Virus record (IMG/VR): IMGVR_UViG_3300032288_001980
Coordinates: 32,001-96,000 of that record
Origin: a virus
Length of the DNA stretch: 64,000 bases
Direction: 5' to 3' (one strand)
How positions within the stretch are numbered: the stretch's first letter is position 1; each line of letters begins with the position of its first letter. The position numbers and the translations under genes were made by a program. The notes beneath the pieces are model-generated. The model was not told the DNA's origin and ran no database searches. It saw nothing but the letters and a program-made list of their open reading frames with translations. This document shows positions 8,808-30,977 of the stretch, in pieces.

Positions 8808-9338
8808 ATGAGATTAAGAGAATTATTTGAACAAGCAGTTTCCGAAGCACTATTAGTTACCGATGTACCCAACGAAGATTGGTTAGATGGTAAAGTAGAG
8901 TATGCTAGAAAAAAAGGCTATGACAGTTACAACAGCCCATATATGGGCAGTACAACCGGTTATGTTAGACAGCCTAGCCGCGTAGAAATACCTATAGAGA
9001 TACTTAAAAGAATTCCTGGTGCTAGAAAAGAACAGGAAAATGTTCGCAGAGCAGATCTCGAAGCTATTATGAAAATAATGGACGAAACAGGCAAACTGCC
9101 AATGCATGACGGGAAAGAATATGCACCTTTTATTGGAGTTGCATGGAACGGTGATGCTAGAGTTTTAGAAGGTAATCATAGAATTATGGCCGCGGCTAAA
9201 TTGGGCTGGAAGTCTTTGCCAGTAGAATTAAAATACTTTGATGGCGGCGAACGAGTGGAGTCGGGCATGTTATACCCAGGTAAAATTGGATTAAAAGAAC
9301 CTGAACCCGGAACGACTATTGTTATGAATCAGGATTAA
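8808..9338 (+). CDS. MRxxE-tagged protein with a ParB/Srx-like domain
   Basis: N-terminus MRLRELFE; VLEGNHRIMAAAKLGWKSLPV resembles the ParB/Srx GxHR core. Confidence 0.65.
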   Translation: MRLRELFEQAVSEALLVTDVPNEDWLDGKVEYARKKGYDSYNSPYMGSTTGYVRQPSRVEIPIEILKRIPGARKEQENVRRADLEAIMKIMDETGKLPMHDGKEYAPFIGVAWNGDARVLEGNHRIMAAAKLGWKSLPVELKYFDGGERVESGMLYPGKIGLKEPEPGTTIVMNQD

Positions 9339-9339
9339 T

Positions 9340-9627
9340 ATGCAAGCTCAAGAATTTGATCATTTTGTTAGGTTAGTCAGCGACCAAGAATTAGACAAAG
9401 ATACTATTAAAGATTTTTTTAGAATAGTATTTGATAGTCCTGTTGGAGCATTAATTGATCAGCAATCTGATGGCGCAGTTATGATATATCATGCCAGAGA
9501 CCAAGAGCATTGCTATGATATTCCTTTAGTTGATGATCTTAGTAAATTGGATGGTGACATAATTTCCAAACGTCTATTGGATAAGTTTCCTTTTGATTTC
9601 AGCATCGAAGCCAGTACTAGTGTTTGA
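9340..9627 (+). CDS. Hypothetical acidic protein
   Basis: 95 aa; N-terminus MQAQEF is a possible variant of the MRxxE tag. Confidence 0.7.
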   Translation: MQAQEFDHFVRLVSDQELDKDTIKDFFRIVFDSPVGALIDQQSDGAVMIYHARDQEHCYDIPLVDDLSKLDGDIISKRLLDKFPFDFSIEASTSV

Positions 9628-9652
9628 CAACTAAATTAAATTTAGTTATACT
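9624..9652 (+). promoter_or_regulatory. Sigma70-type promoter with an internal palindrome
   Basis: TTGACA-17-TATACT; AACTAAAT-taa-ATTTAGTT inverted repeat spans the spacer; ATG 5 nt downstream. Confidence 0.7.
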
Positions 9653-9657
9653 AGTAC

Positions 9658-10020
9658 ATGATTAAAAACATCACTTCTAACTCCTCATTACTAAATGTAA
9701 GTTGCTATCAAGGCAATACTCCATATATCAGTCCAGGTGCCCAAAGTGCCGGTATGCTTAGATATAACACCAACATGAACTATTTAGAAGTCTATGATGG
9801 TGTCAGTTGGCAACAGTTTGGTGGTGGCAATGCTACTATTGATGTAGCACCTCACGTACAGGCTGCTATTGCGTGGGTACAATGTAAAATGGCCGAAGAA
9901 GCCGAAATGAAGGCTATGGCCGCAAAACATGCCAGCGTGGCCCATGCACTAGCTAACGTAGAGCAAGCAAAGAAAGAACTAGATTTAATTTTCCAACTAG
10001 CCAAGGACCACACAGAATGA
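9658..10020 (+). CDS. Hypothetical phage protein
   Basis: 120 aa; GMLRYNTNMNYLEVYDGVSW motif plus a C-terminal helix. Confidence 0.8.
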   Translation: MIKNITSNSSLLNVSCYQGNTPYISPGAQSAGMLRYNTNMNYLEVYDGVSWQQFGGGNATIDVAPHVQAAIAWVQCKMAEEAEMKAMAAKHASVAHALANVEQAKKELDLIFQLAKDHTE

Positions 10021-10295
10021 TTACAGTAGAATTTACCACAGACGACACACTAGAGCAACGCACAGAAACTATCGGCGATTTGCTACATCAGCACCATTGC
10101 GAAGTTACTTTTACCAAAGTAGACGGTTCGGTTAGGGTAATGCCCTGTACTCTCAAAGAAGGTAGCTTTCCCATCGTAGAAAGCAAAGGAACCAAAGCCA
10201 AAAATCCAAATGTCTACAGCGTTTGGTGTACTGACAAGTCAGAATGGCGTAGCTTCAAAATTATGAATGTTACCCAAATTACCGTTCTTGACTAA
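10017..10295 (+). CDS. WYL_2/DUF2693-like SH3-fold protein
   Basis: VTFTKVDGSVRVMPCTL...SVWCTDKSEWRSF pattern of T4-like phage DUF2693 proteins. Confidence 0.7.
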   Translation: MITVEFTTDDTLEQRTETIGDLLHQHHCEVTFTKVDGSVRVMPCTLKEGSFPIVESKGTKAKNPNVYSVWCTDKSEWRSFKIMNVTQITVLD

Positions 10296-10322
10296 TATTT
10301 TCATTTAATGTATAATAGTAGC

Positions 10323-10697
10323 ATGACTACATTTGTCGCCACGGATTCGTTTACACTAGAACAAGTGCAAGACTTTGCACGTATTAGTGGCGACGACCAA
10401 GAAATTCATGTAGTACACGGTATTGTGCAAGGCGGATTCATTATCAGCAAACTGCCTCAATGGCTAGTATGGAGTAAGTTTACCGAACAGGAATATTTCA
10501 AAGACTGTAAGTATGCGCTCAGTGCAAAAATGGATTTGAAGTTTAGTAAACCTGTTAGAGTTGATACTCCTTTGACAATAGAATTTACTTGCGATAATAT
10601 TAAGTCAGCAATCGTCACTATCGACTGGATTGTTAAAAGTGAAAATACTCGGCATTGCTGGGGATCATGGAAAGTTGTTACAAGAAATGGCACATAA
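10323..10697 (+). CDS. MaoC-like hotdog-fold (de)hydratase
   Basis: FTLEQVQDFARISGDDQEIH...IVQGGF resembles the MaoC F-A-x-x-S-G-D-x-x-x-H motif; start moved to 10323 because the track start overlaps a TTGACT-17-TATAAT promoter (10288-10316). Confidence 0.65.
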   Translation: MTTFVATDSFTLEQVQDFARISGDDQEIHVVHGIVQGGFIISKLPQWLVWSKFTEQEYFKDCKYALSAKMDLKFSKPVRVDTPLTIEFTCDNIKSAIVTIDWIVKSENTRHCWGSWKVVTRNGT

Positions 10698-29098: not shown

Positions 29099-29199
29099 GA
29101 GCAACCAGCCCCACCTTAGGGCCGTTAGTCGTCAACGGTATTAGGCGTCCGGACAATTGGACTGTACCCCGTTAGTGTACGCTGGATAAAGTAACCAGC
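29092..29199 (+). ncRNA. Candidate structured non-coding RNA
   Basis: GC-rich intergenic island with up to six short hairpins (GCTC/GAGC, GCCC/GGGC, CCGTT/AACGG, GTCC/GGAC, GTAC/GTAC, GCTGG/CCAGC); TAAATA at 29070-29075 upstream. Confidence 0.5.
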
Positions 29200-29203
29200 A
29201 TCT

Positions 29204-29232
29204 TTGACTTTAGACACTGACTCTTGTACAAT
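29204..29232 (+). promoter_or_regulatory. Sigma70-type promoter (leaderless)
   Basis: TTGACT-17-TACAAT, ATG 5 nt downstream. Confidence 0.7.
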
Positions 29233-29237
29233 AAAAT

Positions 29238-29864
29238 ATGAATGTTACCAACATAATCGACTCTCCTGCTATTATTGATGTTGAGTTTCCAGAATTCGAA
29301 AGATTTGATGTTGATCGTATGTTTGAGGCACCAGCGGGCAGAGTTGACTATGGGTCGTTAGATGTAGAGCCACAACGATTTACAATATTTCCACGTGATG
29401 ATACCAACGACGAGTTTAGTAAATTTAGTAAAGAGCTCTATGAGCCGCTAAGGTTAATAACTAAACAATTAGTATCTCTAGATCCGTTACGGTACCCTAT
29501 GTTCGATAGTCCTAACTTCGACATTTGGTTTACTAAACGTTATGCTAGTAGAACAAAAATAGCATTTAGTAGAGTAATCGATCAGCCTGGGTTCAATCAA
29601 GGCTGGCATTTAGATAATAGATTTGTATTGTTATCGGGTGTAATCAATGTACAAGATAACAATACGCAAACACATTTTTCTCATGAGAGAATTATGCGTT
29701 GGGTACCCGAACAAGTAGAACATGAATTTCCTGAAAAAATAATTCATCAGGGACAAAATAAAAAGTGGACCGGCACGTTTTGGCTTAATACTGAAATTAC
29801 TTGGCACTGTGTGCCTTTAGTTGAAACTACAAGAAAGATTATTTTATGCAATTTGTTTCTTTAA
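29238..29864 (+). CDS. Putative 2OG-Fe(II) oxygenase-like protein
   Basis: WHLDN (HxD) and distal WHCVP His, then a terminal R-K-I-I-L-C strand. Confidence 0.55.
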   Translation: MNVTNIIDSPAIIDVEFPEFERFDVDRMFEAPAGRVDYGSLDVEPQRFTIFPRDDTNDEFSKFSKELYEPLRLITKQLVSLDPLRYPMFDSPNFDIWFTKRYASRTKIAFSRVIDQPGFNQGWHLDNRFVLLSGVINVQDNNTQTHFSHERIMRWVPEQVEHEFPEKIIHQGQNKKWTGTFWLNTEITWHCVPLVETTRKIILCNLFL

Positions 29865-30604
29865 AGAAATATACAACAACTAGCTGGAAAGTTCTTTATA
29901 TACAAATTGCCGCACATCTTGGCCTTTTGTATCAAATATTTTATGGAGAAGCATGGTGGTGGTTAGTTAGTTTATTTGTTTTCGTAGCCAGCGGTTGTTT
30001 TGGTCTTGTAATGACTTATCACAGACTGTTAGCGCATAACAGCTGGCCTGCTAGCAGTAGATATAGAAAAATAGGTAGTCTGCTTGGTGCTTATGCGGGA
30101 ATCGGTAGTCCCATGGTATGGACTGCGGTACATAGGGCGCATCATAAGTTTGTTGACACAGCTCGAGACCCACATGGACCCGAGCACTTAGGACTAGCCC
30201 GTGTACAGTTTCTAGGTATGTTTGGCCAAGCAGGCGGCGAGCATATTATTGACATGCTCAAAGACAAGTTTCAAACTAATCTAAATAGATACTATTTTAA
30301 GCTACATATAGCAATAGCAGTAACTTGGTTGATAATCAGTCCAACTCTATTTGTCTGTGCTTACCTTGCACCCATGGCATTATTATGGGAAATTGGCGGT
30401 AGCGTAAACACTATTAATCACTGGTTCGGCTACAAAAACCGAGATAACCACAAACATCATGCTTACAATAATCCCATTACAGCTATTTTATTCTTTGGTG
30501 AAGGCTGGCATGCTAACCATCATGATAATCCTATCAGCTATACAACCAAAGAAAAATGGTGGGAATTTGACTTTGCTGGTTTAATGATCAAATTGGTTAA
30601 ATAA
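29846..30604 (+). CDS. Membrane fatty acid desaturase (delta-9-like)
   Basis: His boxes YHRLLAH, HRAHH, GEGWHANHH; transmembrane segments; KWWEFD. Confidence 0.9.
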   Translation: MQFVSLKKYTTTSWKVLYIQIAAHLGLLYQIFYGEAWWWLVSLFVFVASGCFGLVMTYHRLLAHNSWPASSRYRKIGSLLGAYAGIGSPMVWTAVHRAHHKFVDTARDPHGPEHLGLARVQFLGMFGQAGGEHIIDMLKDKFQTNLNRYYFKLHIAIAVTWLIISPTLFVCAYLAPMALLWEIGGSVNTINHWFGYKNRDNHKHHAYNNPITAILFFGEGWHANHHDNPISYTTKEKWWEFDFAGLMIKLVK

Positions 30605-30608
30605 TACT

Positions 30609-30977
30609 ATGAGAGCTCACGAATTTATACAAGAACAAACAGCCATGGATATCGAACGTGCTAGAATCGATATTATTGGCCTAGGACATTTAGTACTATT
30701 TGGTACTTTGCCAGTGGGCAAGGATGCTAATTCCAGTATTAAACAGCTTAGTCAAGTTGGCATAACTTATCCTGACTTACATCAAAAACTCTTGGACTTT
30801 TACAATAAGGAAAAAGATCCACACGCAGATTGCATCCCCGTAATCAAAAAATGGCTAGTAGCACATAAACCAAATATTGCCAGTGAACTACACAGCGAAC
30901 ACTGGGAACATCACCCCAAGAGCTCTAACATGATGAGTTCTACTAAGAAGCAAAAGCCGCCTGAAATAACTTCTTGA
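30609..30977 (+). CDS. MRxxE-tagged small protein
   Basis: MRAHEFIQE start; TAAATA 5 nt upstream. Confidence 0.75.
   Translation: MRAHEFIQEQTAMDIERARIDIIGLGHLVLFGTLPVGKDANSSIKQLSQVGITYPDLHQKLLDFYNKEKDPHADCIPVIKKWLVAHKPNIASELHSEHWEHHPKSSNMMSSTKKQKPPEITS

Follow-up and report, generated by a model that had tools for sequence, protein, structure and literature searches.

Why should a run of otherwise dissimilar genes in a phage genome begin with nearly the same residues? The question is raised by a 64,000-base stretch of viral DNA (the window; bases 32001-96000 of the 183,898-base IMG/VR virus record IMGVR_UViG_3300032288_001980, with positions below given in the window unless marked genome), in which an earlier note had described at least 11 late genes starting with M-R-[LFA]-x-E-[LFI] and had likened this N-terminal tag to the capsid-targeting sequence (CTS) of phage T4, reportedly the subject of work by Mullaney and Black in 1996. 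We find that the tag exists, is strongly non-random and is confined to one gene block, and comparison with known systems indicates that it is probably a T4-type capsid-targeting propeptide, one residue shorter, which a large clade of uncultured jumbo phages uses on many shuffled cargo modules. The source record has a CheckV completeness of 52%, and its family-B DNA polymerase shares 50% identity with Sinorhizobium phage Phosso, 46% with Atu_ph07 and 44% with RaK2-type phages. These polymerase identities assign the source to the T4-related RaK2/Atu_ph07 supergroup, as an uncultured jumbo phage with a predicted full size of roughly 350 kb; megablast of the tagged block found no match in 50,697 phage records and no close cultured relative among them.

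We scanned every ATG of the whole genome for open reading frames (ORFs) of at least 40 amino acids (aa) and found the start M-R-x-x-E-[LFIVM] in exactly 11 of them (Table 1), all within 22 kb of the 184-kb sequence (8808-30977 of the window) and none elsewhere. The strict pattern M-R-[LFA]-x-E-[LFI] matches 11 of 229 called ORFs, where proteome composition predicts 0.02. When the columns of the N-termini were shuffled 20,000 times, a procedure that leaves the tag's own residues in the pool, the pattern appeared 0.14 times on average and 3 times at most against the 11 observed, and the original claim of at least 11 such genes stands at exactly that number. The motif does not occur after an internal Met anywhere in the genome. 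The gene at 28148, which the ORF track had missed, is real, with an orthologue of 87.5% identity in a related phage. All-against-all BLASTP of the tagged proteins detected no similarity, with the single exception of a C-terminal module of about 55 aa common to the 12112 and 15836 products; the sequences after the tag are thus unrelated, as first described, except for this module.

The resemblance to T4 extends to individual residues. T4 IPII and IPIII start M-K-T-Y-Q-E-F-I-A-E and IPI starts M-K-T-F-K-E-F, and the tag copy at 30609, M-R-A-H-E-F-I-Q-E, aligns with the former with one residue missing; also compared were gp24, which starts M-A-K-I-N-E-L-L-R-E, and gp22, which starts M-L-K-E-Q-L-I-A-E. 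Suppressor mutagenesis of the IPIII CTS assigned targeting to residues 4 and 7 and processing to residues 8 and 10 (PMC9026906), and these four residues map onto the conserved tag positions 3, 6, 7 and 9, which bears out the resemblance that the earlier note had proposed. Both signals are short N-terminal peptides on unrelated proteins, with a basic residue 2 followed by a hydrophobic residue, any residue, Glu, Phe/Leu, Ile/Leu, any residue and Glu, and most tag copies end in [L/I]-x-E or a similar triplet, [L/I]-x-E being the motif cut by gp21, the prohead protease that removes the CTS from T4 IPI, IPII, IPIII and Alt (PMC3012670, PMC9026906). Unlike the T4 CTS, the tag usually carries Arg in place of Lys-Thr, and it is one residue shorter. 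Its summary pattern is M-[R/K]-hydrophobic-x-[E/D]-[F/L/I]-[I/L/V]-x-E over nine residues, and its end at residue 8 or 9 reads [L/I]-x-E or L-[F/V]-E in 7 of the 11 copies, with a small or polar residue next. T4 gp61.1 (NC_000866 18966-19130, minus strand), a 54-aa hypothetical protein encoded beside the primase gene, also starts M-K-T-F-K-E-F like IPI.

A search for a gp21-type prohead protease and core genes found both a protease and a T4-type head module in the same genome. The protease is a Peptidase_S77 (gp21-type) enzyme at genome 165639-166277 (PF03420, 3.7e-26; phrog_207), and the genes around it follow the T4 order of portal, 75-aa protein in the gp67 slot, acidic 287-aa protein, protease, 366-aa scaffold-like protein and major capsid protein. 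The 75-aa gp67-slot protein itself starts M-K-F-L-E-L, a form of the tag in which position 2 is Lys.

Comparison with relatives shows a constant tag on changing cargo. Relative to the studied genome (G000), its close relative G001 (IMGVR_UViG_3300047560_000921; 231 kb, same protease) carries 11 M-R-tagged genes in a syntenic block, with one tagged gene extra and one missing, and it also encodes the tagged 75-aa head protein. Where G000 has the 8808 gene, G001 has a tagged protein that is unrelated to the 8808 product, and in two tagged orthologue pairs stretches of 105 and 170 aa are inserted internally while the start is unchanged. Identities of the tagged proteins to G001 run from no hit through 35, 50, 54, 71 and 73 up to 87.5%, compared with mostly 65-91%, and 42% in one case, for untagged neighbours. 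This hypervariability between relatives is also a trait of the T-even phages, in which diverse internal proteins with only the targeting sequence in common are established (PMC3012670, PMC9026906).

The tag also reaches far beyond this pair of genomes. The 23356 product has more than 623 metagenomic homologues, and of the best 120 about 100 begin with the tag, with the consensus M-R-A-x-E-F-I-x-E followed by A-P-L-A-D-Y; among the 50,697 cultured phage records it has no homologue. The 20647 family comprises 4,936 representative clusters at 50% identity, with the strict tag in 87 of the best 150 and a Gln variant in many others. A wide survey took 80 IMG/VR loci with a 23356-family gene as anchor: of their 1,569 ORFs, 265 were tagged, up to 10 per 20 kb and 249 of them on the anchor's strand, and removal of the first 12 residues left 42 unrelated cargo families. 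The logo of these 265 tags is hydrophobic at position 3, F/I/L at 6, I/L at 7 and E at 9, the Glu at position 9 being present in 179 of them. An S77 protease is encoded in all three of the most complete surveyed records (76-100%), and the one among them that is complete, a genome of 359,563 bases, has 12 tagged ORFs, the gp67-slot protein included. The spread of the tag bears on the notion that the common N-terminus is a functionless relic of one ancestral gene, for which the clustering of the genes, as after tandem duplication, could be cited. We assign this notion almost no probability: the bodies of the proteins have no detectable similarity, the tag is kept on 42 families and on thousands of 50%-identity clusters whose remainder diverged, and fusions place new modules behind an unchanged tag.

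What is conserved in the tag is largely its protein sequence. Synonymous codons vary among the copies (AGA/CGA/CGT, TTA/CTA, GAA/GAG), the DNA upstream of the tagged genes is not alike, and in the 265 tagged ORFs of relatives the codons at positions 5-9 are used at the same frequencies as in the genomic background (GAA 0.84 vs 0.80, TTT 0.74 vs 0.71); positions 5-9 are therefore conserved at the amino-acid level. These observations weigh against the reading that the shared start is an element acting in translation initiation or at the mRNA level in strongly expressed late genes and holds no protein signal, as does the lack of the motif in the major capsid, portal and tail genes. The strong preference for A-rich codons at positions 2-3 (AGA 0.81 against a background of 0.32, AAA 0.89 against 0.67, GCA 0.69 against 0.44) is what such an element would share with the tag, and we regard the element as a highly unlikely explanation of the whole.

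A cultured phage provides an indirect tie between the tag and virions. The central domain of the 20647 product matches protein EST35_0205 of Pseudomonas phage PA5oct (31% identity over that domain only, E=1e-17), which starts M-K-L-F-E-V, continues like the family consensus and was found as a structural (virion) protein by electrospray ionization tandem mass spectrometry (PMC7318152). The two proteins are homologous from the first residues and both have a tag start, and PA5oct also has an S77 protease. Three of the five annotated PA5oct coding sequences with a tag start encode virion proteins, compared with a base rate of 93 in 461 (PMC7318152). Also in favour of capsid targeting, the homologous domain of Caulobacter phage CcrBL9 has a different N-terminus and lacks the tag, and this phage has no S77 match. 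The virion homologue also bears on the possibility that the tag is a degron or adaptor signal through which the phage's ClpA-like AAA+ protease and DnaJ-like chaperone limit protein lifetime. A 750-aa ATP-dependent-protease-like ATPase is encoded just upstream of the block (1934-4186, phrog_4871), as is a J-domain-like start, recognised by eye, at 1110-1937. However, ClpA and DnaJ are conserved across RaK2-like phages (PMC6102473), yet RaK2 has no tag cluster, and the tag matches the T4 CTS residue for residue; a degron accordingly seems very improbable.

If the tag is cut by a head protease, the same chemistry may extend into the proteins behind it. In 31 longer homologues of the 23356 family, at least one additional module, of varied kinds, precedes the conserved domain, and most of these proteins keep the tag at the extreme N-terminus. 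Their junction before A-P-L-A-D-Y is always hydrophobic-x-E, most frequently Q-G-V-A-E but also I-A-E, I-N-E, L-S-E, I-S-E and others, and the linker occupies the position of the tag end in single-domain forms, as expected if the same Glu-specific protease cuts both. G-V-A-E occurs three times in the studied genome, each time in a tagged protein at a module boundary (Table 1), and once in G001, in a tagged protein. Over the 80 loci its enrichment in tagged proteins is not significant (0.22 vs 0.18 per 1,000 aa), a count in which many of the carriers scored untagged are truncated by the locus boundary or bear a degenerate tag. The junction is also conserved as DNA: related loci totalling 1.19 Mb contain 46 copies of GGTGTGGCGGAA, 43 of them in frame, where 0.05 would be expected, and this sequence uses the rare codons GTG (background 0.14) and GCG (0.08), with the exact codon string at 47 of 76 sites. 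The wider consensus is approximately CAAGGTGTGGCGGAAGG, read as Q-G-V-A-E-G, and the junction DNA may serve in recombination that swaps modules, or may pause translation. We tentatively raise the possibility that this clade of phages of about 350 kb practises plug-and-play loading, in which the nine-residue tag would be combined with a junction cassette, CAAGGTGTGGCGGAAGG, acting both as recombination point and as head-protease cut site.

The tagged genes are likely expressed late, as judged from promoter-like boxes. TAAATA lies within 60 nucleotides upstream of 5 of the 11 tagged genes, compared with 34 of 218 others (p=0.024), so the statement that several tagged genes follow TAAATA late promoters holds for these five. 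The genome has just 4 copies of the strict T4 late box TATAAATA, one of them at 24270-24277, ahead of the 24283 gene. The heptamer ATAAATA is strongly avoided in the window (10 copies on both strands vs 27 expected), and all ten copies lie in gaps just upstream of gene starts, as expected of a T4-type late promoter core. Of the six in the 7-31 kb stretch, the copy at 31001 lies ahead of an untagged radical SAM gene at 31024, and the other five head operons that between them include 10 of the 11 tagged genes. ATAAATA also stands ahead of tape-measure-like, fibre and baseplate-region genes and the related TAAATA ahead of the portal gene, which makes late expression likely. The working late motif appears to be (N)ATAAATA or TAAATA.

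We next consider what the tag carries. The earlier note had named the cargo kinase-like, ART-like, ParB-like, Gp88-like, zincin-like and RyR-like. The kinase-like label is well supported by a module of the 13502 product (phrog_15752, 1e-12) and the GP88-like label by a C-terminal domain of the 21870 product (PF17338); actinophage GP88 homologues align only to residues 180-402 of the 21870 product. The ParB-like match of the 8808 product is weak. A Pfam profile search opened to E values up to 1 added only sub-threshold leads, Kinase-PolyVal at 0.052 for the 13502 product and RyR at 0.36, and the RyR-like label is not confirmed. Nor is the ART-like label of the 15836 product, whose Atlas look-alikes are unnamed or DUF6886 clusters. 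The zincin-like label is unsupported because neither structural comparison of the 23356 family gave a significant match: Foldseek against the PDB returned nothing below E=0.5, with zincin peptidases as weak top rows, and VIA-align (wide) returned Z of 4.3 or less and matched no solved fold. The AlphaFold2 model of the 23356 product is confident, with a predicted local distance difference test score (pLDDT) of 88, and its tag residues 1-9 fall below pLDDT 50, disordered and outside the fold. The family has an invariant H-R-x-G-H (residues 120-124) at the place of the zincin H-E-x-x-H. Content of the polyvalent type may be present in the 13502 product, with its kinase-like and further modules, and in relatives, where ParB-like and other modules are fused; the C-terminal module of the 8808 product is joined to a 23356-type domain in protein P0022. 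Most tagged genes are single-module.

Table 1. Tagged genes, G-V-A-E junctions and late-promoter-like boxes in the window (orthologues are those in G001)
Feature	Position	Strand	Description
Tagged gene 1	8808..9338	+	176 aa; M-R-L-R-E-L-F-E; ParB-like cargo (phrog_8071, 6.7e-5)
Possible degenerate tag	9340..9627	+	M-Q-A-Q-E-F; low confidence; orthologue starts M-I-A-E-E-F
Tagged gene 2	12112..13098	+	328 aa; M-R-F-E-E-F; modular; G-V-A-E linker ahead of C-terminal module shared with 15836 product
G-V-A-E junction, in frame	12847..12858	+	in 12112 product; GGTGTGGCGGAA
Tagged gene 3	13502..15187	+	561 aa; M-R-F-T-E-F; kinase-like module and further modules, two G-V-A-E linkers between
G-V-A-E junction, in frame	14696..14707	+	in 13502 product
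G-V-A-E junction, in frame	15005..15016	+	in 13502 product
Tagged gene 4	15836..16462	+	208 aa; M-R-L-K-E-I; N-domain with DUF6886-like lead; C-terminal module shared with 12112 product
ATAAATA late-promoter-like box	20620..20626	+	ahead of the 20647-21870-23356 run
Tagged gene 5	20647..21873	+	408 aa; M-R-L-Q-E-L-L-A-E; very large family
Tagged gene 6	21870..23354	+	494 aa; M-R-A-S-E-L-F-E; C-terminal GP88 domain (PF17338, 2.9e-32)
Tagged gene 7	23356..24195	+	279 aa; M-R-L-Q-E-L-L-N-E then A-P-L-V-D-Y; >623 metagenomic homologues
Tagged gene 8	24283..24630	+	115 aa; M-R-L-T-E-L; coiled-coil-like; no counterpart in G001
Tagged gene 9	24627..25736	+	369 aa; M-R-L-Q-E-L-V-E; C-terminal end Q-V-A-E-A
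Tagged gene 10	28148..28318	+	56 aa; M-R-L-H-E-L-V-E; orthologue 87.5% identical
Tagged gene 11	30609..30977	+	122 aa; M-R-A-H-E-F-I-Q-E; copy nearest the T4 sequence
Similar late-promoter-like boxes	7019, 7053, 11737, 24271, 25757		

Several further proteins of the block and of its relatives deserve description. The 24627 product has a glycine-rich, glycine-zipper-like hydrophobic stretch near its C-terminus, and its G001 orthologue lacks 170 internal residues. The protein at 25810-26904 (+) starts M-S-K-K-S-I-Q-E-Q-L-V-E, with two [I/L]-x-E motifs that may mark a variant leader, and has a DUF3008-like end (PF11450, 6e-5); the ORF list begins this gene at a TTG at 25783, and the orthologue begins at the Met. 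Between tagged genes, an untagged 415-aa protein (26904-28151, +) has a start rich in Pro and Thr and a repeated AT-hook-like motif, G-R-G-R-P; it might bind DNA within the head. In relatives, some tagged ORFs (locus L086 from 11688 on the plus strand and locus L099 from 8339 on the minus strand) have a twin-arginine/signal-peptide-like segment directly after the tag, S-R-R-G-F-L-G-A-L-G and ending A-Q-A, a hint that, once injected, such cargo would be exported by the host.

Together, the non-random clustered tag, the S77 protease with its head module, the match to T4, the portability over cargo families, the junctions, the disorder of the tag in the AlphaFold2 model, the PA5oct virion homologue, the untagged domain of CcrBL9, the late-promoter-like boxes and the divergence of the tagged proteins from G001 lead us to favour capsid targeting as the probable explanation. 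The tagged genes would be made late, and the tag would dock each protein onto the prohead scaffolding core. The gp21-type (S77) protease would then cut after the Glu at position 8-9 and, in multi-module proteins, at internal [V/I/L]-x-E junctions such as G-V-A-E, and the freed cargo would stay in the head with the DNA and enter the host at infection. For this phage we infer the docking, the cleavage after Glu, the injection and the effector role of the cargo from such comparisons, and we consider injection of the cargo and its action on the host plausible. Of the earlier proposal that the tag sends unrelated cargo to the capsid, comparison strongly supports the T4-like tag, the unrelated cargo and the gp21-type protease, and packaging of these proteins is predicted.

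A tag that targets the prohead core need not deliver effectors, and its cargo could instead serve inside the capsid in core building, DNA condensation or head-size control. In keeping with a function of this kind, the head-core protein in the gp67 slot has a similar N-terminus, the tagged ORFs of Phosso adjoin the protease gene, several cargo proteins are small or coiled-coil without an enzyme signature, and the AT-hook-like basic protein lies within the block. Against it stand the kinase-like module, of a host-takeover or polyvalent type, the ParB-like module and the GP88 domain, together with the high cargo turnover between close relatives and the 42 cargo families, which fit an arms race better than a structural role. 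We therefore judge a purely in-capsid function unlikely.

Several observations weigh against capsid targeting by the tag or complicate it. Four of the 11 tags have no Glu at position 8-9, and these proteins would have to be cut further along or at another kind of site. The A-rich codons at positions 2-3 point to an additional effect on translation start, which may contribute to whether Arg or Lys stands at position 2. RaK2, SCTP-2 and Atu_ph07 have an S77 protease and few or no tags (two ORFs in Atu_ph07), and SCTP-2 has a different N-terminus on a homologous domain. The PA5oct enrichment of three in five is marginal, at about p=0.06. The invariant residues of the 23356 family begin with the tag-end Glu, and the junction evidence is therefore suggestive and may partly reflect conservation of the domain, while a protease site alone does not explain a G-V-A-E junction conserved as DNA with rare codons. 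Finally, untagged Fe-S, diiron, Dps-like and desaturase genes also lie in the block, which is therefore not a pure cargo operon.

Capsid targeting by this tag would differ from each of the closest known systems. Compared with T4, which has three internal proteins plus gp61.1 with the same start, the set of 11 tagged genes is larger, as the earlier note had held; the cargo here includes large multi-module enzyme-like proteins with internal cleavage-type junctions, and the phage is a distant jumbo relative known from sequence alone. In phiKZ, 201phi2-1 and SPN3US, propeptides of inner-body and ejection proteins are cut by a gp21-like protease at [S/A/G]-x-E (PMC5694885, PMC10052503). These phages likewise load many proteins into a jumbo head, their T4-related protease trims after Glu, and their paralogues can have an identical N-terminal stretch in common, but they are of another lineage and their propeptides are mostly 79-130 residues long, with no common short tag and a small P3 residue. 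The proteins described here fall outside this long-propeptide class, with a shared part of 9 residues and I/L/V/F at P3 (compare PMC5694885). Polyvalent proteins, as described by Iyer, Burroughs, Anand, de Souza and Aravind in 2017, are predicted to travel with invading DNA and include kinase and ParB in their repertoire (PMC5512222). The tagged cargo resembles them in its shuffled effector modules (kinase, ParB-like and others), its multi-module proteins beside virion genes and its proposed processing into pieces; unlike them, many of its modules are encoded separately and bear an address tag of their own, and the proposed processing would be by the prohead protease at G-V-A-E-type junctions and not by a built-in zincin peptidase.

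Literature searches for the T4 tag string, or for prohead protease together with RaK2, found nothing relevant. At the terms searched, the PA5oct paper (PMC7318152) mentions prohead protease once and neither the tag nor N-terminal processing, the Atu_ph07 paper makes no mention of prohead or internal proteins, and a 2026 jumbo-phage review makes no mention of capsid targeting, propeptide or prohead protease. A 2026 review (PMC13282480) counts a single described anti-defence protein for jumbo phages.

If the tag works like that of T4, the set of proteins carried into the host would be readable from sequence for a very large group of uncultured giant phages, and would provide a ready candidate list of host-takeover and anti-defence proteins. 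The T4 capsid-targeting principle would then apply far outside the T-even phages and cover large modular enzyme cargo, and the tag could be used as a short portable signal for loading foreign proteins into other phage heads. Should the more tentative plug-and-play arrangement also be true, dozens of shuffled enzymes would be packed, separated and injected, and the injected proteomes of thousands of phages could be read from sequence.

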